This document shows, piece by piece, positions 12,555 to 35,800 of a DNA stretch of 64,000 nt. The DNA lies in IMG/VR virus record IMGVR_UViG_3300036900_000315, positions 2,595 through 66,594 of that record, one strand, 5' to 3'. The position numbers and the translations under genes are program-made. Source of the DNA: a virus. Position 1 is the stretch's first letter, and every line of letters starts with the position of its first letter. The notes beneath the pieces were generated by a model, which saw nothing but the letters and a program-made list of their open reading frames with translations, did not search any database and had not been told where the DNA came from.

Positions 12555-13737
12555 GAGAAGTCATTCCTTTCCGATGGATTTTTTCGACTTCAGCCCACTT
12601 GCGCTCCTCTCTTAAATCAGCCGCGGTCTTGTGAACTGCTGCCGGTGAGGGGGTGTTACCTGCGCGTTCGTCCGCCAGTTCTTCGAGATAGGCTTCGCTC
12701 GCTTTTTTGGCCAGCAGTACGAGGAACGGCCACTTCCTTACACGGTGCGCATTCTCCGTCAACTGCGGCTCGAAGAACTCCCGCCACGCGCGCCCGGTCG
12801 GGATCAGGTTGTGAATCTGGGCGCCGAATTCCTTGGGTAGGACCTCCCCGATCTTCTTCCGGAATAACCGGTTCAGTCGCTCCTTCAGTTGCTCGTAGCT
12901 TAGTGCGTCTTCATTCTGGGATGGGGCCTTCGGGGGGGCCGCGGCGGCCGGCGCCGGGGTGGGGGTGACGTCCAGGATTCGACCGGTTATACTGAGTGTC
13001 GTTACCAGATCGAAGCTGTTGGGATTGCGTAGGCGAATTGTGTCGATTGCAGCCCAGAGGGGCAGGGGAGGGGATTGCTCCCCTGGTTTAACGACGATGG
13101 TTTGAGGTGAAAACGTGCGCTCTGGCTGATCAGCTAAAGATTGCGTAAAACTGCCGAGTTCGGCAGTCTGTGATAATTCGCACTGCGGTAAATTGTTGAT
13201 TTCGCTAGGTAATTCAATTTCTGACGTTGACGGCGCGTCCGTCGGAATATTGGTTTCCTCAGCCTTCGGTGAGACTCTCCGCACCGTCGCCCGCGCGGCC
13301 GCCCGAAGCTTTTCGGGTGCCAGGCGATACCATGTCTGGCCATCCATTCGCTGCGTCTCCAGTCCAATCTCGCGCAACTCCGCGACTGCCTTGTTCACGC
13401 CCGATTCGGTGGCGATCCCGATCCGCATCAAGTCGGCCATCGAGAACGGCACCCATCCCGGGTGTGGATACGCACTCTTTTCCGCCAGGTAGGCCGCGGC
13501 TTCCGCTCCATAAACTCTCGGATCGACCCGGCCGCCATAGGTCCCCCGAACGACCGCGTACACGAGACGGAAGCCGATGGCTGATGTGACCGCGGCGTCG
13601 AGCTTCTCCCAATCATCGTTCGAGAACAGCGTGCCGTTCTTTTTGACTTCGGGTGCCAGTTGGAAACGGAGGTCGAGAGTTTGCTGCCGACCGTCTGCCG
13701 GCTTCTTTTTCGCTCGGGCTGCTGAACCAGTACTCAT
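12541..13737 (-). CDS. Putative replication initiator (N-terminal winged HTH)
   Basis: Start MSTGSA (ATGA overlap); FSMADLMRIGIATESGVNKAVAELREIG wHTH; linker; helical C-terminal domain. Confidence 0.65.
   Translation of the reverse strand: MSTGSAARAKKKPADGRQQTLDLRFQLAPEVKKNGTLFSNDDWEKLDAAVTSAIGFRLVYAVVRGTYGGRVDPRVYGAEAAAYLAEKSAYPHPGWVPFSMADLMRIGIATESGVNKAVAELREIGLETQRMDGQTWYRLAPEKLRAAARATVRRVSPKAEETNIPTDAPSTSEIELPSEINNLPQCELSQTAELGSFTQSLADQPERTFSPQTIVVKPGEQSPPLPLWAAIDTIRLRNPNSFDLVTTLSITGRILDVTPTPAPAAAAPPKAPSQNEDALSYEQLKERLNRLFRKKIGEVLPKEFGAQIHNLIPTGRAWREFFEPQLTENAHRVRKWPFLVLLAKKASEAYLEELADERAGNTPSPAAVHKTAADLREERKWAEVEKIHRKGMTSHGPE
13151..13201. promoter_or_regulatory. Intragenic iteron-type palindrome plus IHF-consensus site
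   Basis: CTGCCGAGTTCGGCAG at 13151-13166; AATCAAcaatTTA on - strand at 13189-13201 matches WATCAANNNNTTR. Confidence 0.5.
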
Positions 13738-14168
13738 ACGGCACCTGCGTTCTGTGCCTTCTCGGCCGCTGCCAAAACCTTTTCCGGGACAATGCGGTAC
13801 CAGAGCTGACCATTCAGGCGCTCCGTCTCCACTACTCCTATTTCCCGTAGTTTTGCGATTGCCTTCTTTACTCCGGATTCCGTGGCGATCCCGATCCGCG
13901 TCATGTCGGCCATCGAGAACGGAGTCCATTCCGGGTGCGGATATCCGCCCTTTGCCGCCACGAATTCCGCGGCATCGTTGCCGTAGATCTTCGGATCGAT
14001 CCTCCCGTCATAGGTGCGCAGGACAATCTCGTCGGCCAGACGTAAACCAGTCAGCGATGTGCACACGGCATTCAGCCCGCGTTTGAGATCCGTTGAAAAG
14101 AGAACGCCGTGGTTCTTGACTTCCGGAGCGAGCCTAAAGCGGAGATCGGGTTTTTCGGGGGTGGGCAT
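13734..14168 (-). CDS. Stand-alone wHTH paralog of the initiator N-domain
   Basis: LRFRLAPEVK...YPHPEWTPFSMADMTRIGIATESGVKKA...WYRIVPEK aligns with the next gene. Confidence 0.75.
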   Translation of the reverse strand: MPTPEKPDLRFRLAPEVKNHGVLFSTDLKRGLNAVCTSLTGLRLADEIVLRTYDGRIDPKIYGNDAAEFVAAKGGYPHPEWTPFSMADMTRIGIATESGVKKAIAKLREIGVVETERLNGQLWYRIVPEKVLAAAEKAQNAGAV

Positions 14169-20132: not shown

Positions 20133-20266
20133 CGGGTAGGTTCTGGAGGGAGAAAAGCGTAGTTCTGTTGATCTGGTCCCAAACTACATAATCGGGATCT
20201 GGCGGGAAAAGGTGCCAAACCATCAGGCGCCGGGCTACAGTTCGCCTGCGGGTTGGGTGGTGGTGA

Positions 20267-20512: not shown

Positions 20513-20719
20513 TTAACGCTCAGACGGTATCGGGCGAAGCTGCGCTATCGGGCGCCCTGCCTTGGGTCGAGACTTGGCGCGATCGACGTCGGCCGGACTG
20601 ACGAGGTGATCCCGTCCGATGCGCGTGGTCCGCAGTTTGCCGCGTTCGATCATCTTTTGCACGCCGCGGAGGGAGATGCCGAGCTCGTCGGCGGCTTGGG
20701 TGGTGGTGAGCAGGGTCAT
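20513..20719 (-). CDS. Excisionase-like HTH regulator
   Basis: MTLLTTTQAADELGISLRGVQKMIERGKLRTTRIGRDHLV...KAGRP. Confidence 0.85.
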   Translation of the reverse strand: MTLLTTTQAADELGISLRGVQKMIERGKLRTTRIGRDHLVSPADVDRAKSRPKAGRPIAQLRPIPSER

Positions 20720-24379: not shown

Positions 24380-24592
24380 ATGGGCAAAGGACGATTTAAG
24401 GGACAGCTTCCCGACGAGCTAGTTGCGTTCTTCCGGAATGCCGGCAAGAAAGGCGGAAAGCTGAGTGCTGCCGCGCGAATGGAGAAACTGACTCCCGAAC
24501 AGCGCAGTGCGATCGCGAAGAAGGCGTCGGCGGCCGCGGCTGAGAAACGGAGCCAGGCGGCGGCGGAGCGGAAGGCGAAGGAGCGAAAATGA
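24380..24592 (+). CDS. Small basic helical protein (GKKGG...LTPEQRSAIAKKA type)
   Basis: Divergent from the promoter; Lys/Arg/Ala-rich. Confidence 0.7.
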   Translation: MGKGRFKGQLPDELVAFFRNAGKKGGKLSAAARMEKLTPEQRSAIAKKASAAAAEKRSQAAAERKAKERK

Positions 24593-24932
24593 GCGAACAA
24601 GATCAGGATGCGGTAATCGGTCGACTGGTGAAAGAGCGGGCAGATGTTCGCCGCCAGCTTGCGCTGCTGAGAGAGGATATCCGGGACAGGGGAAGAGTCC
24701 TGCAGGAAACGGGTAACCGTCTCTCGCAGAGTACTCCCGATGAATCGAGCCTCCAAACCGGCATTGGGATGTTGGGGCAACTCGAAGCGAGCAATGCGAT
24801 TTCGCGCCTGAAAGCAGCGGTCGAAGATTGCCACCGGCTCACTGTGCGCGATCGCGAGATCAACACGGCACTCAAAAACGCCGGCATTGAATAGCCAGGC
24901 GGCGGCGGAGCGGAAGGCCAAGGAGCGAAAAT
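24551..24932. repeat. 40-bp direct repeat (24551-24590 and 24893-24932)
   Basis: AGCCAGGCGGCGGCGGAGCGGAAGGC(G/C)AAGGAGCGAAAAT, 39/40 identical. Confidence 0.92.
24589..24894 (+). CDS. Helical hypothetical protein between the repeats
   Basis: ATGA overlap; AAGGAG supplied by the repeat. Confidence 0.7.
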   Translation: MSEQDQDAVIGRLVKERADVRRQLALLREDIRDRGRVLQETGNRLSQSTPDESSLQTGIGMLGQLEASNAISRLKAAVEDCHRLTVRDREINTALKNAGIE

Positions 24933-24936
24933 AATC

Positions 24937-25209
24937 GTGGCCGAGAATCGAAACGAAGAGTTCGACGAGCGACTTGCAGGGCTCGAAAGGAACGTGTCCA
25001 AGCTGGCTAAGATGTTCCTGGAAATGAACGCGTCGCTGAATTCCCTGAAGATCTATCTCGCTGAGAACAAAATTATGGACGGGCCAAACTTCACCGCCTG
25101 GAACGAAAAAGCGGTCGCGGAAACTATGGAGACGATGAAGCGGGAGAATCCGGAACTGTTTGCAGAATTCGAATGGTTTGACGATTCTGAGAACGAGCCG
25201 CGTCAGTGA
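24937..25209 (+). CDS. Acidic hypothetical protein
   Basis: GTG start after the second repeat copy. Confidence 0.6.
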   Translation: MAENRNEEFDERLAGLERNVSKLAKMFLEMNASLNSLKIYLAENKIMDGPNFTAWNEKAVAETMETMKRENPELFAEFEWFDDSENEPRQ

Positions 25210-26558: not shown

Positions 26559-26630
26559 ATAGTATATGATGATGAGCATGGAGTCAATAGGAAAAGCAGG
26601 CGATGAACGAGAAAAAGTATATGATGTTGA
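26559..26630 (-). promoter_or_regulatory. Leftward sigma-70 promoter with repeated operator
   Basis: TTGACT-N17-TACTAT (26587-26559); AGTATATGATG(A/T)TGA twice (about 26561 and 26617). Confidence 0.7.
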
Positions 26631-27465
26631 TGATGGAGAGATTTTGCAAGTGCCTGAGATGCGGGAATACTTGGACGCCGAGGGTGTCGGGGCGGCCCAA
26701 GCAGTGCCCGAGTTGTCACCAAGCGAAGTGGGACACCCCATCGCAGTGGGTCGGCGCGAGATCCGCAGGCAAGAAGCGGGCTGCGTCTACTTCATCGAGA
26801 CGCACGACCGGGCCTTCGTAAAAATCGGCTTCAGTACGTACATGTATGCGCGATTGAATACCATCAAGTGTAATTGCCCTGGCGCGCGGCTGATCGGATA
26901 TATGCCCGGCACTAGAGCCACAGAGGAATCGCTTCACTTGAAGTTCGCCGCAGTACGTGGTGACGGCGAGTGGTTCACGAACACGGAAGAATTGCGAGCG
27001 TTCATCCAAACGCTTGAACTAACGACTACACTAAACCCACCTAAGTCTAGAGGTCCAAGAACATCCGAAGAGCGCACCGCCATAGCGATAAAAATTAATG
27101 CAAACAGAACGCCGGAAGAGAGAAGAGCCTGTACCGAAAATGCACGTGAAGCCATGGCGGGAAAAAGACGAAATATCGTGAGGCCGAGTGAAGAGGAAAA
27201 GGAAGCAGCCAAAAAGATCCGTGACGCTATCACGCTGGAGAAGCGTAGGGCGAATCAGGCAAAATTTGCTGCGTCTTTGACACCCGAGCAGCGCAGTGCG
27301 ATTTCAAAGAAGGGACATAAAAATAGGGTATGGTCGATCGAGGATAGAGGTAGAGTACGTGACCGGTTCGCCGCGGCGCGCGCAAAAGCTGCCAAATGCA
27401 GGCAAGAAGAAAGAGAAAACTTCAGCCCGCGGCAGATAGATTCCCAATTTAGTACATCCGGCTAA
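26566..27465 (+). CDS. T5orf172/GIY-YIG-like domain protein with basic helical repeats (true start probably downstream)
   Basis: GCVYFIE...VKIGFS...RL...EESLHLKF...GEWF; repeats TSEERTAIA, TPEERRAC, TPEQRSAIS. Confidence 0.75.
   Translation: MMMSMESIGKAGDEREKVYDVDDGEILQVPEMREYLDAEGVGAAQAVPELSPSEVGHPIAVGRREIRRQEAGCVYFIETHDRAFVKIGFSTYMYARLNTIKCNCPGARLIGYMPGTRATEESLHLKFAAVRGDGEWFTNTEELRAFIQTLELTTTLNPPKSRGPRTSEERTAIAIKINANRTPEERRACTENAREAMAGKRRNIVRPSEEEKEAAKKIRDAITLEKRRANQAKFAASLTPEQRSAISKKGHKNRVWSIEDRGRVRDRFAAARAKAAKCRQEERENFSPRQIDSQFSTSG
26621..26821 (+). CDS. Small zinc-ribbon protein
   Basis: CKCLRCGNTWTPR...PKQCPSCHQAKWD. Confidence 0.65.
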   Translation: MMLMMERFCKCLRCGNTWTPRVSGRPKQCPSCHQAKWDTPSQWVGARSAGKKRAASTSSRRTTGPS

Positions 27466-28145: not shown

Positions 28146-28482
28146 CTGCAGGAAACAGAATGTGATGGCGCGCTTCGTCACGCTGTCCGAGAACCACCCA
28201 CACCGCGTGTTTCAGCGCCTTGACCTGGTCGCTATCTCCAGGCTCAGGCCGGATGTCCACTCCAGCAGGAGGCCACGTATCGGCCTTCGGTCCCAGGTTC
28301 AACCGCTCGCAGAGCGAATAAGCCTCAGCGCGGGCGCCAGGCATGCGTTCGAAGAACGAAGCAATCTTGAAGTTGGGCGAGATCTCCGAACCAGGCTCGT
28401 ACACGTTGTACCACTCATCGCCCTCCGGACCGTGAACCGGTTCGTTCACTCGGTAGCGGGCTGTGATCTTCGGATCGTTCAC
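28135..28482 (-). CDS. Hypothetical protein
   Basis: GTGA overlap; GGAGG upstream. Confidence 0.6.
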   Translation of the reverse strand: MNDPKITARYRVNEPVHGPEGDEWYNVYEPGSEISPNFKIASFFERMPGARAEAYSLCERLNLGPKADTWPPAGVDIRPEPGDSDQVKALKHAVWVVLGQRDEARHHILFPAVTT

Positions 28483-28862
28483 GCTATTACCTCCAAAGAT
28501 CGATCGGAACTCGCGGCGATCGCGCTGCGCGTCGGGTTATCCGCGACGATACAGCCCTCTGAGGCCTTGCCTGGGTGAGCGATCGAGTCCGGATGAATAA
28601 AGAAGCCGTCGCGCCCGTGCATCACGTTCTTGGGGTCCGGTGTGAGCCGCATGGCGACCGGTCCGAGGCGAGGTTCCGTGTGCGCCGGGCCGATCGTATA
28701 GAAGCCTCGAGGGAGCGGTCCGACGCAGGACTCAAACTGGCGATCCGGGTTGTTCTTGGCCGAGGCGTCGAAGTGCGGCGGAATGTTGCCGCCCGCGTAG
28801 CCGGTGCCGACGAGCTGCCCGTCGTGGGACATGCGTCCGGTGGATTGCTGATATTGCCACAT
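28479..28862 (-). CDS. Tlde1/DUF2778-like L,D-transpeptidase-fold protein, putative endolysin
   Basis: WQYQQSTG...GYAG...NNP...GPLPRGFYTI...GRDGFFIHPDS...ASEGCI. Confidence 0.85.
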   Translation of the reverse strand: MWQYQQSTGRMSHDGQLVGTGYAGGNIPPHFDASAKNNPDRQFESCVGPLPRGFYTIGPAHTEPRLGPVAMRLTPDPKNVMHGRDGFFIHPDSIAHPGKASEGCIVADNPTRSAIAASSDRSLEVIA

Positions 28863-28886
28863 GGATTGTTTTCCTTTTCCGTTGCC

Positions 28887-29633
28887 CTAAAACAGCCGCG
28901 CCGCGCCCATGATGCCGACCTTGGCGAAGTCCTCCACGTGGTTCCACCAGCGCTTCGGTTTCGTTAACTCGGTCACCTCGCGGTCTACGCTCTTTGATAT
29001 GCTGGCCGCGCTTCCCTCGATTTTCACTGCACTGTCTGCCATCTGTGGAGCTGCCTTCGCAATCTCCTTCGTCATCAGGTCGATCGACCGCGAGATCCCC
29101 TGGATATGGTTGAACAGGCAATTTCCTGAATCGCAGTCGAGATACAGCGGCGCAGCATCGTTGAGCTGAGCAGCCAAAGAAGCTGCCGGCGTCGTGACCT
29201 GGTGAACGTCCGCTGCGATCCCACCAAGCGCCTGAGATACTGATCCTGTTAAAACTGGCAGCGCGGAGGATGCGGCACGGGAAATTGTGGCGATCGACTC
29301 GATCGACTGGTTTGCATCCCCGAGCTGCTGGGCTGCTACCGCCTGAATTCCTGCCAGTCGCTTGTCTGCGACCCGTACGGCGCCGTTGACCGTGGCTTCG
29401 ATCCGCGTCATGTGTTGGTCCACGAGGCCCAAAGTTTGCGTCTGAATTGCAGCCAGTCGGCTGTCCACGATTCCCGGTACCGCCGCGGCCATCTGTGCGA
29501 TCGCGTTTTCGTTTGCCACCGTTGCCGCGGTGATGGCCCGTGCGTGAAAGATCGTCTCGACCACGAGCCATGCGCCCACCGCGAGGAATACAGAGGCAGA
29601 CGCGTACAGGATGCCGCGAAGGATCTGAATCAT
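28887..29633 (-). CDS. Membrane-anchored long helical protein, putative spanin-like
   Basis: N-terminal TM, extended heptads, CDSGNC pair, amphipathic C-terminus; in lysis cluster. Confidence 0.55.
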   Translation of the reverse strand: MIQILRGILYASASVFLAVGAWLVVETIFHARAITAATVANENAIAQMAAAVPGIVDSRLAAIQTQTLGLVDQHMTRIEATVNGAVRVADKRLAGIQAVAAQQLGDANQSIESIATISRAASSALPVLTGSVSQALGGIAADVHQVTTPAASLAAQLNDAAPLYLDCDSGNCLFNHIQGISRSIDLMTKEIAKAAPQMADSAVKIEGSAASISKSVDREVTELTKPKRWWNHVEDFAKVGIMGAARLF

Positions 29634-30070
29634 GCGGCTTTCTTTATGGCGCTTACTGAGGGCCGGAAAATAACCAGTGCGCTTGGGAATGGAGCGGAGT
29701 TCTTATGGCCGCCGAACTTCAGACGACCACGCAGGAATCGAACCTCGCCCTTGATTGCATAGTCGTGCCACCAAGCCGTATCTGTCCGAGCGGGAACGAG
29801 GCAGACGACAGTGGCACCTTGCAATGCCGACTCGTGCGCCTTTCGCATCCATAGGCCGATGGTTCGTCCGTAGGGAGGGTTCATCCAACAGACGCCGCGC
29901 CACGGCTGCGATAGGCCATCCTGCGCCTCGGTAAAGTATCGAAGGCATTTGGCGTTTTCGCCAGTGGCGCAAACATCCAACCTGAAGACAAACTCCTGCC
30001 GCAACCCGTCGAAAAACTCCTGGGGAGTCGCCCACATATCGGTCGCGGAACTGAAATGCACGTTCATCAA
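29630..30070 (-). CDS. Phage DNA N6-adenine methyltransferase (phage Dam type)
   Basis: WATPQEFF, LDVCA, WMNPPYG, LVPARTDTAWW, RGRLKFGG, SAPFPS. Confidence 0.93.
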   Translation of the reverse strand: MMNVHFSSATDMWATPQEFFDGLRQEFVFRLDVCATGENAKCLRYFTEAQDGLSQPWRGVCWMNPPYGRTIGLWMRKAHESALQGATVVCLVPARTDTAWWHDYAIKGEVRFLRGRLKFGGHKNSAPFPSALVIFRPSVSAIKKAA

Positions 30071-30315
30071 GCCCCTGTTTCCGTCTTCGTGATCTGCACA
30101 CCCGGCGTCTGCACTGAGGAGTCGGCAGTTTTGTGCATGCTGTACCCGCCGATTCCGCCAGCGAGTCCCGTAACTGCTGAGCAGAGAGCAGTGGTGATGA
30201 CGCCACTTTCCGACGCCTTGCCAGACCAGACGAGCACACCCACGGTTGCGGTGACGAAGATCAAGGCCAGGAGCATGGAGAGCGTGGCGAAATTCTTATC
30301 CAAGAGGGTGAGCAT
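30067..30315 (-). CDS. Putative holin (2 TM)
   Basis: Two hydrophobic helices; 82 aa; lysis context. Confidence 0.6.
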   Translation of the reverse strand: MLTLLDKNFATLSMLLALIFVTATVGVLVWSGKASESGVITTALCSAVTGLAGGIGGYSMHKTADSSVQTPGVQITKTETGA

Positions 30316-30954
30316 TTATTCCTTTTGGGCCAATACCCCAGCCCGGTAGCTCGTCACGTGGTGCGAGAGCAGAGCGTCCCACCTCGAGCCAGGCCCGTAA
30401 ACCTGGACTTCTGTCCCGCCGTGCCGAAAGAGCGGGGGGAGCGGAACGTCTGGCACGATGTCGAATTGGTTGCAGACGCGGATTGTTCCCTTGAGCGTCT
30501 TCGCAAAAAGCGAATCCCCCACCCGCGGCCCGCCGAACGTCATGAGCTGCCCGCCGCCGTCCGCATAGCAGAGGCTTGCGATCGCGGCGCCCAAAGAATG
30601 CCCGGTGATGATGGCATCCGGGGAGACTGTCACGCTGCCCCGTATTGCCTCATAGATCGAGTGGAAGCCGTAGTGGGCGTGCGGTCGAAGCGGTAGCGGG
30701 AGGAAATCTGCGACCCATTCCGGAAAGTCACGGGTGCCACGAAACACGATGTACTGCTGGGTATCCTTCCAGGTGCTGAATCCCCATATCGGCATGGCGT
30801 CGTGCTCCAGCAGCTCCGGGATAACGCCTGCAATTCGGATTGGGACGGCAGGAGAGAAGCCGTCAGGGAGTGTGAAGGGTAGCCCCAGCGCGAGTTCGTA
30901 GGCCGCGGCGATGAGGTCGAGCAGGAGTAGCGCGGAGGACTTCGAGTAGATCAT
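30316..30954 (-). CDS. Class 3 lipase (alpha/beta hydrolase)
   Basis: VFRGT, HYGF, ITGHSLGAA, TFGGPRVGD, DIVPDVP, SHH. Confidence 0.92.
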   Translation of the reverse strand: MIYSKSSALLLLDLIAAAYELALGLPFTLPDGFSPAVPIRIAGVIPELLEHDAMPIWGFSTWKDTQQYIVFRGTRDFPEWVADFLPLPLRPHAHYGFHSIYEAIRGSVTVSPDAIITGHSLGAAIASLCYADGGGQLMTFGGPRVGDSLFAKTLKGTIRVCNQFDIVPDVPLPPLFRHGGTEVQVYGPGSRWDALLSHHVTSYRAGVLAQKE

Positions 30955-30987
30955 GTGCGACGTGGTTTTAGTGTTCGTCAGGAATCG

Positions 30988-31281
30988 TCAGAGTTGGATG
31001 CCCAAAGACTCTCCGGCCGCCCAAAGGAGTTCGGTAACGCCTCCGTTAATCAAATCCAGAGATTGAGGGGAGGCGCTCCTTCTCAGTTCAGCGAGATGCT
31101 GTAGTCTTTCCTCGATCTGTTGCCTGGTTTTGACCTGCAGGGGGCCATCTGACGGCGTCGCCTTTTCAAGAGCGTTGGCAACCCGTTGATTGATGGCCAC
31201 GAGGACAGGTTCGGCTTCACGGACCTGTGATGGGTCAATGTAACCGGTTTTTATTAAATCTACAGTTTGTTTGATTGTCAT
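30988..31281 (-). CDS. Hypothetical protein
   Basis: 97-aa ORF in the insert. Confidence 0.65.
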   Translation of the reverse strand: MTIKQTVDLIKTGYIDPSQVREAEPVLVAINQRVANALEKATPSDGPLQVKTRQQIEERLQHLAELRRSASPQSLDLINGGVTELLWAAGESLGIQL

Positions 31282-31313
31282 GATTGTTTACTCTCTGACG
31301 GTTAAAATTCGGA

Positions 31314-31691
31314 CTACACGCTGCGGTTCGCTACGATCTGCTTATAGACTTCAAGAGTTCGATCCATTAGTGATCCAGCGGCCTGCATAAATTCGCGTTC
31401 CGCCTCGCGACGCTCCACCGTGGCGAAGCCGCCCTGCCAAGTGACGCGGAACAAGGGAGACAAGTCCTCCCGCGACCCATCCATGTCGGCATAAGGGTAA
31501 GACCCGTGATCGGGATCGGGAAAGCGCTCCCAGTCCGGCTGACCCATTAGAATCGCCTGCATGATGGCCCACTTGATGGCATCAGTGCCCGCTTGGAACA
31601 CACACGACCCGGAGGCTCCATTGGCATCGCTCCATTCGGCCACGTAGATGATGGGCCGATTCCATTTCGAGAACTCCAAGTGGGTAGTCAT
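31314..31691 (-). CDS. Hypothetical protein
   Basis: Start reassigned to MTTHLEF; the upstream extension consists of duplicated fragments. Confidence 0.65.
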   Translation of the reverse strand: MTTHLEFSKWNRPIIYVAEWSDANGASGSCVFQAGTDAIKWAIMQAILMGQPDWERFPDPDHGSYPYADMDGSREDLSPLFRVTWQGGFATVERREAEREFMQAAGSLMDRTLEVYKQIVANRSV

Positions 31692-31789
31692 TGTCAGAAG
31701 CTTTTGCCGAAACCGAACGGCGATGAGATCGAGCAGGAGTAGCGCGGAGGCCTTGGAGTAGGTCATTATAAAAGTTGCAATCGTAATCC

Positions 31790-32020
31790 CAACCCCACAG
31801 ACGGGGGTGTCGGTGCGCAGGCGCAGTAAAGGAATCGGGGAATCCGACGGGCATAGTCAGTACCTATCCGGTTGTGAGTGCCTGGATAGGGAATCGAAGC
31901 CGCGATAACGTCAAGGCGGGAGGCTCTAAGGAACTCAACGGGTCCCGTGAACGAAGCCAGGCGGTCGGCATCCCACCATAGAGCGAAGGGCCATCTGCAA
32001 GTATTGGGGTGGCCCTTTTT
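31790..32020 (+). ncRNA. Candidate structured ncRNA, antisense to the late operon
   Basis: Hairpin 31863-31890, rod-like stem 31889-31974, then a terminator; G-U pairs fit + strand. Confidence 0.45.
31988..32020 (+). terminator. Intrinsic terminator
   Basis: GGGCCATCT...GGGTGGCCC followed by TTTTT. Confidence 0.7.
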
Positions 32021-32041
32021 GATCAGAATCGTCAGGTATCG

Positions 32042-32542
32042 TCAGAAACTCTTGCCGAAACCGAAAAATAATCCCGGCGTTATCTGATTCGGCACAGCGG
32101 GGGTTGCCTGCGTCGCCGCAGTGATGCGAAGTTCACCCACCAGATAGATGCCGGCCAACTTTGGTTTCAAGCCCTTGAGGTCGTAAAGCATAATGGCGCC
32201 GCCCGAGAAGGAGCCGATAGTAGGGGTGGCAGCCGCTACTCCAGCATCGACCCGGCCGCCAAGGGAGAAATTCCCGGATCTCGAGAATAGCTTCATGAAC
32301 CCGGTCCGGATCGTGGACACGTTGGACAGCATGTCGATGGTGGTGATCGAGTAGTTTCCGCCGCCCAGGCCAACCGCCGCGGACACCCAGCCCTCCGCCA
32401 CGTTAGGAGTGCCATTGTTGCGCGTGTATCCCCCGCCTGTTGCGACGAAGTAGCTGGGATAGGGTTCAGGGCTCGGTGCAGGCGTGACTGTCTGGGCCGA
32501 GGCGACGAAAGCGAACAGCAAGAGGGCGAGGGCGTGTTTCAT
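32042..32542 (-). CDS. Small outer-membrane beta-barrel protein
   Basis: Signal MKHALALLLFAFVASA|Q; alternating beta strands; C-terminal FGFGKSF. Confidence 0.75.
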   Translation of the reverse strand: MKHALALLLFAFVASAQTVTPAPSPEPYPSYFVATGGGYTRNNGTPNVAEGWVSAAVGLGGGNYSITTIDMLSNVSTIRTGFMKLFSRSGNFSLGGRVDAGVAAATPTIGSFSGGAIMLYDLKGLKPKLAGIYLVGELRITAATQATPAVPNQITPGLFFGFGKSF

Positions 32543-32551
32543 TGGAGGGAG

Positions 32552-32863
32552 TTACCTTTTGGCGGGTGCCGCCGGCTTCGCTTCTTCCGGCTTTGGTTCC
32601 GGATCGACCACCCAGCGCAGAGTCTGGGGGTCCAGGTGGATCTTCAGGGTGGGGTGGGCCGCCTTGACTGCCTTCTCATACTCGATAATCTGGGTGCCCA
32701 GAAGGTTCGCCTGTGTGGTGAGGAGATCGCGCCTTGCTTGCAGGGTTTCGACCTTCGAGGCTTCTAGTTCCGTCATGCCGTCCTGTTGAGGTGGCGCTGG
32801 TTTGGGAGCTTCGGCTGCGAGGCAGAGGCCCACTGAAACAATTGCAAAAATTATAGCTTTCAT
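32552..32863 (-). CDS. Secreted coiled-coil protein in the fibre-chaperone position
   Basis: MKAIIFAIVSVGLCLA|AE signal; short coiled coil. Confidence 0.7.
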   Translation of the reverse strand: MKAIIFAIVSVGLCLAAEAPKPAPPQQDGMTELEASKVETLQARRDLLTTQANLLGTQIIEYEKAVKAAHPTLKIHLDPQTLRWVVDPEPKPEEAKPAAPAKR

Positions 32864-32897
32864 AAATGTTTTCTTTGGTTGCGTTTTTTTTAACGAC

Positions 32898-35800
32898 CTA
32901 GCAGCCGGACGATCCGTAGAAGATTCCAGCCGCGAAGTCCATCGTGCAGGTGCCAGTATTGGCGAAGTTTCGCACGCCAAGGGTGCCGGTGAATCCAGCG
33001 TGGCCACCAGCAGAGATACCCGAAGACCCCATGATGATTCCAGAATTGAAAGTCACGGCCTGCTGGAACGTCGAGAACGACGCCGAGGTGAAGTTGATGT
33101 TGCCGGATGCGTCGATCTGGATGCGGTCAGTATTACTGGTGCGGATGCCGAGCGATATGGCGTTAAACGATCCAAAGAAAGCACCGCCGCCGCTGCCGCC
33201 TGTCATCCCCATGTAGGCTTTGTTGCCAAAGTCATTCTTGACGACGAAATAGACGTTTCCGCCAATGACACCGGTTTGCCCTAGCAATTCAAGTTTGTTT
33301 CCTGCGTCGATGTCAGTGTTTTGGTTACCGGCAAATACGACCCCACCGAAGGCGCCGCCGCCGTTTGGCACGTTGAGCGAATTCTGAAGGGTACCGCTTA
33401 CAGTGCTATACAGTGAAGCAATACCTCCGCCTGTCACGTCCAGCGCATTAAAGGAATTGGTTGATGTGATTGCTCCGGTTAAAGTCGTAAAGCCGCCGCT
33501 AGGCAGGTTTAGAGCGGTTCCTGATGAACTGGCCGAATGAAATCCGTCACCCGATTGAACCCATCCTGCGGTCGCTGTGATGCTGGCCTGTGACGCGGTG
33601 CCGTCGATCAGAATATTTCCAATCGGCGTGAACCTTATGAACTTGGCGTTGCCAGAGCTGCACGATGGTGGGTTGGGGCACTGATTCGTGATGATGTTGA
33701 ACTGCCCGTTCACATCGTTCCACATGCGGGTGATCATCGGCGTAGAAGGGAGTCCGCTGACGATCGGCCCAGAAACAATATCAATGAACTGTGAGTTTGT
33801 GGCATAGGCCGCGCCCGTGCAAGACCCCAGTACCGTGGTGCAGGCCGAGCCCGAGTAGCCCACGTTTCCATGGCCGATATGCAAACCGACGATAGCAGCA
33901 CCATCATTGGTGATGTACCCGTAATCCCAATAGTTCGCCGCACTACCAGTGAGGTTGATGTTCACGGCCTGGGTGGTGAGATTGGTATGGGTGATACCCA
34001 GGTACGCGACGCCCATATTGAGGCTAGACACACTAGATCCGGTGTTGCCCACCTGCTGATCGAATTCCGCGCCGACAACCGAGCCTGCATGGTTGTGCGA
34101 ATAGTCAAACACGCTCGTAGCCAAGGACCGATCAACGTCCGAGACAAAAATATTAACGCCCCAGGCCTGCGCGTTGGTTGCATTCACGAGGCCGTAGAAC
34201 GCGCCCCCGTTGCATCCCACGTGGTGGCCGCCGCCGAAGCCGAAGGTAAAGGCTGCGTTACTGACGCACATGCCAGTGACACCGTTGCTCTCCCAGTTAG
34301 CATCCGAGGAAGATGAAACCGCGCCGCCGACGATACCCGACTCGCGCCGCAATGTTTCGTAGGCGTAGGGGTGGAAGTATTCTAAGACCGCCGTCTGGCT
34401 GGTGGCGCCTGCGCCCAATAGGCCAATGACGGGAGAGTAGTCGTGAACGTCATCGAACGCGCCCGCGCTGTTGGCCTCCAGGGGGATGCTGCCGGTAAAG
34501 GATGTCGACCCGAGTAGTAGGGGAGCCGTCGCTGCGGGGCACAGCGAAGACCGAATGAAGCCGCTACCGTCCAAGCACAGAAGAGAACCCGATCCGCTGA
34601 GTGCGCCGAGCCCTGTGGCATTGACTGTGCCGCCGATCCCCATTGGTGCGGCGAAGCTAACCGTGCTCGCTGCGTTGCTTTGTACGAAGTTGCTGACGTT
34701 GCCCATGTTGATGCAGGGCAGCAGCGTTGTGCAGCCAGTCCCGCTCGTGGTGGTCGCTACGAACTGATTTGCGCCGGTGACGCTGGAACCTCCCCAGAAG
34801 CCGATGCCGGTGTGGTTATTGGATGCATCGATGGCCTTAAGCGGGCTGGAGCCGTTGACGCCGATGAAAACCGTATTGAAGAACGTGTTTCGCAGGTTGT
34901 CCACTGCTAGCCCGGCTGTTGAGTTTGCTACGGCCCCGGTGCCGATGGATAAGGAATTCACCCGGCTATTGCGGGCCGAATCCAAGGTCAACGTGCTGGT
35001 ACCCGTGTCGGTGATGCTGTTCAGATAGGAGTTACGTACGTTGTCAATCGCAAGATTACCGGTGATGTTCAGCGAATGGAACCAAGAGTCCTGCGTTTCA
35101 TCGATCAGCGGCGTTGCGCCCCAGTAGAGGCCGCCAGTCGTCGTGCCGTTGCCCAAATACGTGCGCCCATTCGAGGAGAGGCTCAGGATCAGGTTGCTCG
35201 TCGTGGTGGGGGTTGCGCCAGAGTAAAAACGCGACAAAACGATGCCGGTTCCCAACTCGATCTGATTGCGAAATGTCGCCACCGCCGTGCTGCCGTGCTG
35301 CGAAATTCCCAGGTTGTAGCCGGCGGAGGTCACGCCCGAGGTCGTGGTGGAGTTTCCGCCGTACTCGACCGAACTGCTATTGATGTCCTTTGAGAACTGC
35401 GCCAGGGGCCCGGTCAGGTCGTTGTCGAAAACCCGGTTGACGTCCGCGGTGACGAATGCGCCGTATTGCGCGTCCTCGATCGCTGCGTTTATTCCGCCGC
35501 TGCCTGAATACGTGATCTTGTTTTTGGTGACTGTGACGGCGTTGGCCTGCTGGTTGCTTCCGGTGCCTATCGTCCCTAGCGTGATCGGCGCGCAGAAATT
35601 ATGATCGGAAGTTCCGTTGCTATTGCCGGGGATCGTGAGGGTGTTTCCCGAGACCAGAGAATTGCGGGCGCCATACATTTTGATGCTACAGCCGAGGCCA
35701 TAGAACGAGTTATCTGTGATGCTGAGATTGTTTTCGGCCTGCGTGTTTCCGTTGCTGTTGCCCGCGTTGTAGCCGTAGTTCCAATTCTGCCCGGCACTCG

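Follow-up and report, generated by a model that had tools for sequence, protein, structure and literature searches.

A head-to-tail joint between lipase and outer-membrane-protein gene fragments in a temperate-like soil phage, read as a recombination scar

How the first bases of one gene come to be joined, head to tail, to the last bases of another, with both genes also standing intact on either side, is the question raised by a locus on the minus strand of IMG/VR virus record IMGVR_UViG_3300036900_000315. The window, i.e., the whole stretch of DNA analysed herein, covers 64,000 nt (bases 2595-66594 of this 66,594-bp linear record, a metagenome-assembled viral contig), and positions are those of the window. 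Between the gene for a predicted outer-membrane protein (OMP) and the gene for a class-3 lipase, a second, partial lipase head is fused directly to a second, partial OMP tail, and two open reading frames (ORFs) follow as cargo. The joint is read here as the passive scar of a single illegitimate, out-of-register join whose partners were two related temperate phages or a phage and a prophage (probability about 0.5); the scar itself is probably without function. The features that bear on this reading are, in the order in which the minus strand is read:

32042..32542, minus strand: full OMP gene, 166 amino acids, ending FGFGKSF* (from the ORF list, the structural model and Foldseek)
32038..32065, minus strand: copy a of the OMP tail, functional, with the stop codon and 4 nt past the stop (repeat search and BLAST)
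32029..32046, minus strand: copy a of the border motif, TCTGACGATACCTGACGA, in which TGA is the OMP stop codon
31767..32028, minus strand: slot A, 262 nt without a gene, from motif copy a up to the ATG of the partial lipase head
31718..31766, minus strand: partial lipase head, ATG plus 46 nt, a dead stub (45/49 to the full gene)
31690..31717, minus strand: partial OMP tail including TGA (25/28 to the end of the full gene)
31314-31766, minus strand: ORF150, a mechanical ORF of 150 amino acids, made up of a stub-derived extension and ORF125
31314..31691, minus strand: ORF125, first cargo gene of slot version B, with ATG 31691 as its likely native start
30988..31281, minus strand: ORF97, second cargo gene of slot version B
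30975..30992, minus strand: copy b of the border motif, TCTGACGATTCCTGACGA, in which TGA is the ORF97 stop codon
30955..30974, minus strand: 20-nt spacer from motif copy b to the lipase start (sequence reading)
30316..30954, minus strand: full class-3 lipase gene, 212 amino acids, with the functional copy of the duplicated head in its first 49 nt (30906-30954)

A direct-repeat search over 29500-33500, combined with a word-7 BLAST comparison of unit 1 (32140-31718) with unit 2 (31717-30820), revealed three collinear blocks, beyond which the two units showed no further likeness (the next matches being exact 10-mers at an expectation value, E, of 0.28). The lipase head is duplicated at 30906-30954 and 31718-31766 (45 of 49 positions identical, 92%; E 5e-15), the OMP tail at 31690-31717 and 32038-32065 (25 of 28, 89%, with a 25-nt core of 23/25 at E 2e-5), and the 18-nt border motif at 30975-30992 and 32029-32046 (94%; E 1e-3); the 49-nt lipase heads lie 812 nt apart and the 28-nt OMP tails 348 nt apart. 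On the minus strand, unit 1 consists of the OMP end, the motif, the 262 nt of slot A and the lipase start, and unit 2 of the OMP end, ORF125, ORF97, the motif, 20 nt and the lipase. The two units are arranged in tandem and share their limits, one in the OMP gene and one in the lipase gene; the structure is an out-of-register join, equivalent to a tandem duplication from OMP -25 to lipase +49 whose copies differ in content. At its centre, the partial lipase head (ending at 31718) abuts the partial OMP tail (starting at 31717) with no base between them. The joint reads ...ATCGCCG and then TTCGG, the full lipase ...ATCGCCG and then CGGCC, and the full OMP gene ...TTATTT and then TTCGG; no bases are shared at 31718/31717 (no microhomology), and the join is therefore illegitimate, not homologous. 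The initial annotation, which had described a 45/49 lipase head fused directly to a 23/25 OMP tail with silent changes, and the motif at both stop codons, was right in every particular and at the correct minus-strand coordinates.

Given that the record is a metagenome-assembled viral contig, and that the only public run containing the stretch is the one marked as its probable source, a chimera of two co-occurring strains, formed at the assembly or the read level, has to be weighed before any biological event. The copies agree over at most 22 consecutive nt, a stretch shorter than the words with which assemblers usually work, and, because no sequence is shared at the joint, an assembly graph can pass through it only where reads contain it. 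The interval 29800-32844 is covered by a 6,651-bp Logan contig (mean word depth 10.5) with no differences, no gaps and no alternative joints listed; Logan contigs are built separately from the IMG assembly, and this one, coming from the same probable source run, constitutes a second assembly rather than independent data. Among the 15 Logan records compared, two were at least 99% alike, one was 90-95% alike, and 12 were below 90%, these being short pieces of other organisms. A strain-chimeric assembly, the outcome that the initial annotation had named as refuting its own reading, is thus unlikely, and an artefact is very improbable.

The third duplicated block, the border motif, bears on the earlier history of the same slot. 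It has the form TCTGACGAT(A/T)CCTGACGA, and its copies at 32029-32046 and 30975-30992 agree at 17 of 18 positions; with up to 3 mismatches allowed, it matches twice in 64 kb as compared with 0.12 expected, and none of 100 shuffles reached two matches. It comprises two CTGACGA units 10 nt apart, followed in unit 1 (32026-32046) by a degenerate third, TCTGATC, and could serve as a binding site for a protein; on its own, the heptamer CTGACGA shows no enrichment in the window (13 matches versus 10.2 expected). In unit 2, TCTGACAAT and TCTGACGAT (TCTGAC(A/G)AT, 8/9 identical) stand on either side of the two-ORF block, which suggests that the block may once have entered a short ancestral slot composed of OMP stop, motif, about 20 nt and lipase start. 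This bracketing, together with the 262 nt that separate motif and lipase ATG in unit 1, implies three events in one slot: two insertions and one illegitimate join.

Whether the two units stem from different lineages or from a duplication in place can be judged from the way in which their copies differ. The copies differ at six coding positions, and four of these differences are silent and lie at third positions (pN/pS 0.16), the lipase head carrying two silent and two replacement differences and the OMP tail two coding differences, both silent. Under neutrality, a silent share of 24-30% is expected (P 0.03-0.07, depending on transition bias), and pooling with a second scar in the window, the ORF72 tail described below, gives five silent versus two replacement differences (P 0.011); such a pattern fits divergence of the copies while both lay in working genes. 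The lipase stub, moreover, encodes Ala at residue 6 (Ser6 to Ala), as does the 85%-identical relative P0002, and thus resembles a natural gene variant. The silent-leaning differences mildly favour two diverged relatives over duplication in place, and it is unlikely that two dead stubs would last to 8% drift in a phage genome; the scar could be young, provided that the copies had diverged before they were joined.

The anatomy itself is established, is not attributable to chance and is present in a second assembly; a different-lineage origin of the units and a single intermolecular event are inferred from it, and the event would have proceeded as follows. The partners would have been about 90% identical here and would have differed in the DNA between their OMP and lipase genes. 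One parent would have given everything up to lipase +49 (the OMP gene, the motif and the 262-nt slot A) and the other everything from OMP -25 onward (ORF125, ORF97, the motif, the 20-nt spacer and the full lipase), such that the recombinant would carry an intact OMP gene, an intact lipase gene, both slot contents and, fused head to tail, the two dead stubs. Two co-infecting phages could have served as partners, as could a phage and a prophage resident in its host; the phage is a temperate-like soil phage, as judged from an integrase (PF00589) and an HTH_17 excisionase-like gene in the window, and resident prophages would therefore be available. A homologous anchor upstream or downstream would make the event the phage equivalent of homology-facilitated illegitimate recombination (HFIR), and the three direct-repeat pairs could in turn resolve the locus by deletion of 812 bp (slot A left), 348 bp (the two-ORF version left) or 1,054 bp (an empty slot). 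With both breakpoints kept to the base (lipase +49 to OMP -25), the locus records an illegitimate exchange that added genes instead of replacing them. In the available part of the report by De Paepe et al., phage recombinases are described as exchanging short, diverged sequences between phages and defective prophages (PMC3945230).

Several considerations weigh against such an intermolecular join. Its product is topologically identical to that of a Campbell-type circle integration, which makes "a single intermolecular event" an argument from parsimony; the two-lineage origin rests on six to seven substitutions; and duplication in place is not rejected by these, with P at 0.12-0.15 for the locus alone and at 0.05-0.07 once the ORF72-tail scar is added. 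The second assembly comes from the probable source run and is not independent, and contigs cannot show minority forms. In addition, exchanges between lambda and defective prophages need homologous recombination enzymes, with illegitimate events suggested to be much rarer, according to the same part of that report (De Paepe et al., PMC3945230). Despite this caution, a joint without homology calls for an illegitimate step in every model.

Duplication in place would have begun with a copy of approximately 110-130 nt (OMP end, motif, spacer and lipase start), followed by about 8% drift and, later, by separate inserts, of 262 nt in one case and of the two-ORF cassette in the other. The presence of the motif in both units, and of a cassette bracketed by TCTGAC(A/G)AT as if inserted in a short slot, is well accommodated, the count of insertion events equals that of the two-lineage model, and the substitution pattern is compatible, as the P of 0.12-0.15 indicates. 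One copy of each pair would, however, have been dead since the duplication, so that about 35-38% of the differences are expected to be silent, and those observed lean further in that direction (4/6, or 5/7 when pooled); two dead stubs would have to persist to 8% divergence, and two independent insertions would have to strike adjacent copies of the same short segment, a combination that renders this course of events unlikely. A further proposal was that of the initial annotation, wherein two alleles of the slot had been concatenated by a downstream-to-upstream join after a fragment of a related phage was circularised and integrated by single crossover. The concatenation is borne out by the anatomy and, weakly, by the silent-biased differences, whereas the circularised fragment and its crossover are not supported over simpler routes. 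In this scheme, an 812-bp ring of a related phage (OMP tail, ORF125, ORF97, motif, spacer and lipase head) would have closed illegitimately and then undergone Campbell-type integration into a slot-A phage, by a single homologous crossover, either within the lipase head (49 nt) or within the OMP tail (28 nt). The head-to-tail joint looks exactly like a ring closure, flanking direct repeats are expected from a single crossover, and the silent-biased differences fit a donor of another lineage; a precedent is found in T4-type phages, where inverse polymerase chain reaction recovered small circles between repeats flanking ORFan cassettes, which were proposed as transfer vehicles in the part of the article available (PMC2839356). 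Against it, two events are needed, an illegitimate closure and a crossover within at most 49 nt at 92% identity, and one unequal crossover yields the identical product in one step; the repeats are gene ends and not a dispersed regulatory cassette, and no circle joints are listed among the Logan contigs, which drop rare forms. Sequence cannot separate the unequal crossover from the mini-circle route, but the latter is judged the less likely of the two.

A dedicated cassette-exchange system, PeSL-like or integron-like, with the CTGACGA-containing motif as its recombination site, would account for the placement of that motif at the downstream edge of the OMP gene in unit 1 and of the cargo in unit 2, always overlapping a stop codon, as well as for its paired CTGACGA units and for the presence of a tyrosine recombinase in the window. 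It is nevertheless very unlikely. The motif occurs only twice in 64 kb, CTGACGA is at about its expected frequency, and the other scars in the window use unrelated sequences, i.e., gene ends. The only tyrosine recombinase of the window lies 11 kb off, adjoining the excisionase-like HTH_17 gene, as in a normal integration module; among seven inverted-repeat pairs found in 29500-33500, moreover, none brackets the cargo, and the features of an integron cassette are accordingly absent from the locus.

The joint also bears on the annotation of the cargo. ORF150, as called mechanically, starts with 16 codons of the lipase stub, continues through nine codons of the OMP stub read out of frame, and only then reaches the ATG at 31691. 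A search of 5.8 billion proteins with ORF125/ORF150 returned a sole relative, P0123 (119 amino acids, 68% identical), which aligns from ORF150 residue 39, has its own start three residues earlier and is without a lipase-like N-terminus. Given where this alignment starts, the native gene is ORF125 and the extension is scar-derived; given that P0123 starts near the internal ATG and is devoid of the lipase-like N-terminus, the fusion is local and recent. ORF97 is an orphan: a search of 1.84 billion representatives returned only the protein itself and one match at E 8.6e-4. Its G+C content is 0.52, compared with 0.57-0.64 for its neighbours, and local G+C dips to 0.445 over its 5' half and the spacer before it; low G+C over ORF97 fits imported cargo. 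Neither ORF125 nor ORF97 obtained a function from Pfam, PHROGs, PADLOC or NCBIfam, except for a PHROG of unknown function matched by ORF97 at E 0.068, and the atlas score of ORF125 (0.79) is below the useful range. No promoter or terminator of the cargo's own was found in the region, where counts were at shuffle level: terminator-like sites numbered 3 versus 3.0 expected, and the single sigma-70-like site (TTGGGA, 16 nt, TATAAT; 31792-31765), which ends on the stub ATG, compares with 0.9 expected, leaving no promoter or terminator signal above background.

Slot A, the content of the other unit, had been marked initially as a non-coding RNA candidate, a designation that finds no support. It has no Rfam match at E up to 1, ARAGORN detects no tRNA in it, and its folding is ordinary (z-score -0.60, with 54 of 200 shuffles folding equally well); on these three grounds, an RNA gene was rejected. 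A gene remnant was likewise considered. A frame in register with the OMP stop runs open through slot A for 91 codons (31769-32041, minus strand), but this frame has no start codon, its G+C is flat across codon positions (0.56/0.55/0.58, whereas third-position G+C is 0.63-0.77 in nine of the ten listed neighbours and 0.52 in ORF97), it has no Pfam or PHROG match, and its atlas score of 0.85 is below the useful level. A remnant was rejected for want of a start codon, codon-position bias and family match, and the frame is probably open by chance. No other copy of slot A was present in the window or in the fetched loci, and it is read as non-coding DNA. For annotation purposes, ORF150 is best read as ORF125 with an extension that stems from the scar, and an RNA-gene entry for slot A is not warranted.

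Similar scars elsewhere in the window provide context for the joint. Close-range diverged direct repeats (at least 24 nt, at least 85% identity, at most 3 kb apart) number six over the whole window, whereas 30 order-2 Markov simulations yielded 0.03 on average and never more than 1. A small CxxC...CxxCGG ORF is present twice at 22700-21830 (minus strand); its copies have 167 nt in common at 90% identity, then diverge, and bracket a 144-amino-acid ORF (22461-22027), the start of one gene being repeated, as at the main locus, on either side of cargo. Over the 171 nt compared, they show 13 silent versus 8 replacement differences (P 2e-4). These duplicated ORFs, of 74 and 94 amino acids, are zinc-ribbon-like in appearance (MIMLNIQ.PCPACIK...CRKCGGLGYL). 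ORF72 has its final 45 nt (...AAAERKAKERK*) duplicated at 93% identity (24551-24595 and 24893-24937, plus strand), with the second copy directly after the stop of ORF101 and before ORF90; the sole difference in 13 codons is silent, beyond which TGA gives way to TAA and one further base differs, and the ORF101 stop codon is itself formed at the joint with the ORF72-tail copy. A weaker case involves the HTH_17 gene, from whose 5' part 28 nt recur as a fragment (24/28; 20239-20266 versus 20682-20709, minus strand) right after the stop of a 78-amino-acid ORF; the fragment may represent a third scar or belong to the attachment region. The 78-amino-acid ORF is lipoprotein-like, and the fragment lies about 190 nt upstream of the integrase gene.

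In view of these other scarred loci, exchange out of register, between relatives differing by about 10%, seems habitual in this lineage. A more ambitious extension, in which small accessory genes would be gained and swapped recurrently by means of gene-end homologies of 28-170 nt (approximately 90% identical) as handles, possibly via mini-circles, with the four scarred loci (20.2, 21.8-22.7, 24.5-24.9 and 30.9-32.1 kb) as snapshots of continuing cassette traffic rather than separate accidents and the 10-nt-spaced CTGACGA pair as a preferred break or join site, is doubtful. Most mosaic joints in phages are clean, so that the originating event cannot be reconstructed; the present scar is of a known kind (a recombination scar or mosaic joint), with unusually legible breakpoints and with companions in the same genome. 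No new mechanism or element is revealed by it; instead, the window offers a small internal sample of accessory-gene accretion in an uncultured soil phage, downstream of the tail-fibre gene and in the early region.

Comparison with known systems places the scar more precisely. The experimental demonstrations of HFIR concern transformable bacteria rather than phages of the present kind. In the available part of one study, the type VI secretion system (T6SS) arrays of Vibrio cholerae are described as holding displaced effector remnants and orphan immunity genes, and HFIR, i.e., homology-anchored illegitimate joining, is proposed as the source of displaced gene remnants in T6SS and Rhs arrays (PMC5361080). 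As in those arrays, so far as that part describes them, a new version of a variable stretch has been added beside the old one, with a fragment of a flanking gene left between, and one side of the exchange would be homologous and the other an illegitimate join; unlike them, the present locus is a phage accessory region downstream of a tail-fibre gene, stubs of both flanking genes are glued together, and the event is deduced from sequence. Campbell-type insertion-duplication likewise leaves a short homologous segment directly duplicated on both sides of an insert, and the joint could be a ring closure; no circle, replication-deficient vector or site-specific recombinase, however, is implied or seen here. 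PeSL-mediated modular shuffling in T4-type phages has reportedly been described by Comeau and colleagues in 2014. With the PeSL mini-circles of T4-type phages, as characterised in the available part of the original article (Arbiol et al., 2010; PMC2839356), the locus has in common small ORFan cassettes between short direct repeats able to delete, insert and circularise, whereas PeSLs are there a dispersed family of promoter plus stem-loop, and the repeats here are unique gene ends that show no promoter or terminator signal above background. The present phage also differs from PeSL host phages in being temperate-like rather than T4-like. Morons are extra genes between conserved neighbours in temperate phages, often of deviant G+C and equipped with their own promoter and terminator; lom of lambda, which encodes an OMP and lies close to the tail-fibre genes, is an example. 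The accessory OMP and the small cargo genes downstream of the tail-fibre gene, together with the lower G+C over part of the cargo, are reminiscent of morons, from which they differ in that neither a promoter nor a terminator was found for the cargo and the OMP had no Pfam Ail/Lom match.

The two genes whose ends were duplicated are identifiable to different degrees. The 212-amino-acid protein matches the class-3 lipase family PF01764 (E 5.5e-16; 59.2 bits versus a Pfam cut-off of 22) and the esterase/lipase family phrog_21992 of PHROGs, and its translation contains GHSLG, the GxSxG nucleophile motif; a protein search returned 81 relatives, including P0002 at 85% identity. The 166-amino-acid OMP has no Pfam match, and hence no membership of the Pfam Ail/Lom family. 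A model built on an alignment of 24 relatives comprises a signal helix (2-14) and eight beta-strands (pLDDT 80.7, pTM 0.70), and its Foldseek matches include a designed 8-stranded barrel, OmpA-TM, Ail, PagP, OmpX and NspA, with E from 1e-4 to 5e-3 for OmpA-TM, Ail and OmpX; the C-terminal residue is Phe, an aromatic residue. The protein is thus predicted to be a small 8-stranded outer-membrane beta-barrel, a membership that holds at the level of fold only. Its protein search returned 40 relatives, including P0082 at 89% identity, and it belongs to a 90% cluster with P0083 and P0127.

A syntenic relative of the locus was not found in the viral, metagenome, genome or GenBank phage collections searched, and close relatives of the OMP, the lipase and ORF125 were seen at the protein level only. 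Judged by length, the contigs that encode the closest OMP relatives (99,543, 6,838 and 17,558 bp) and P0123 (46,808 bp) do not recur among the lipase matches; a single length, 2,077 bp, is common to a lipase match at 44% and an OMP match at 58%, which is no more than a hint. Against viral contigs (IMG/VR), the lipase and the OMP as single-protein queries returned no relatives each, two DNA patterns derived from the duplicated blocks returned no matches each, and the ORF125 profile returned none; blastn of 30300-32900 against GenBank phages gave no match. The lipase profile reached a top identity of 38% in viral contigs (among 80 loci kept of 507) and, in genome contigs (GTDB; 80 kept of 457), matched metagenome-assembled genomes best in Acidobacteriota (48%), Bryobacteraceae (45%) and Solibacteraceae (45%), with the OMP found in none of those 80 kept loci. 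The OMP profile detected four loci in JGI metagenome contigs, two of them in a bacterial chromosomal setting and none with the lipase, and one locus in viral contigs (L006), also without the lipase; in 3 and then 401 genomes of the phylum of genome G002, it gave no matches, a search without a positive control and thus uninformative. Given the occurrence of its family both in a bacterial chromosome and in another phage, the OMP is a mobile accessory gene whose family moves between phage and host genomes. The relatives in question are 61-62% identical and lie at L003 1474-1965 and L004 1338-1829 (bacterial chromosome) and at L006 5944-6483 (IMG/VR phage); the chromosomal ones adjoin a MurJ-like flippase and a thiol-peroxidase-like gene, both named by eye, and the homologue in L006 is flanked by a relative of the window's own 248-amino-acid protein and other genes.

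With regard to the wider setting, the record has a CheckV completeness of 84, and the minus strand carries every gene between 28.4 and 37.2 kb. Upstream of the OMP gene stand:

37220-32898, minus strand: fibre-like gene, 1,440 amino acids, first in reading order
32863-32552, minus strand: gene for a signal-peptide protein, 103 amino acids, second in reading order

Downstream of the lipase follow, in order, genes for an 82-amino-acid membrane protein, a Dam methylase (PF05869), a 248-amino-acid protein and a Tlde1/YkuD-like protein. Within 28479-30954 (minus strand), the 82-amino-acid protein is of a two-helix membrane type and the 248-amino-acid protein has an N-terminal membrane helix; as a guess, the lipase and the genes downstream of it might form a lysis cassette, with the lipase attacking the outer membrane.

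Two further repeats in the window were observed outside the scarred loci. A 144-amino-acid ORF (14168-13734, minus strand) is paralogous to the N-terminal part of the 462-amino-acid ORF that follows it (13363-13603 versus 13836-14076; 71% nucleotide identity over 241 nt), neither has a Pfam match, and the pair is an older partial tandem duplication. The peptide LTPEQRSAI(A/S)KKG is encoded both in ORF72 and in a 299-amino-acid MUG113/T5orf172-domain protein (26566-27465, plus strand), the underlying 36 nt (24489-24524 and 27278-27313) being 86% identical; it may resemble the NUMOD-type DNA-binding repeats of homing endonucleases.

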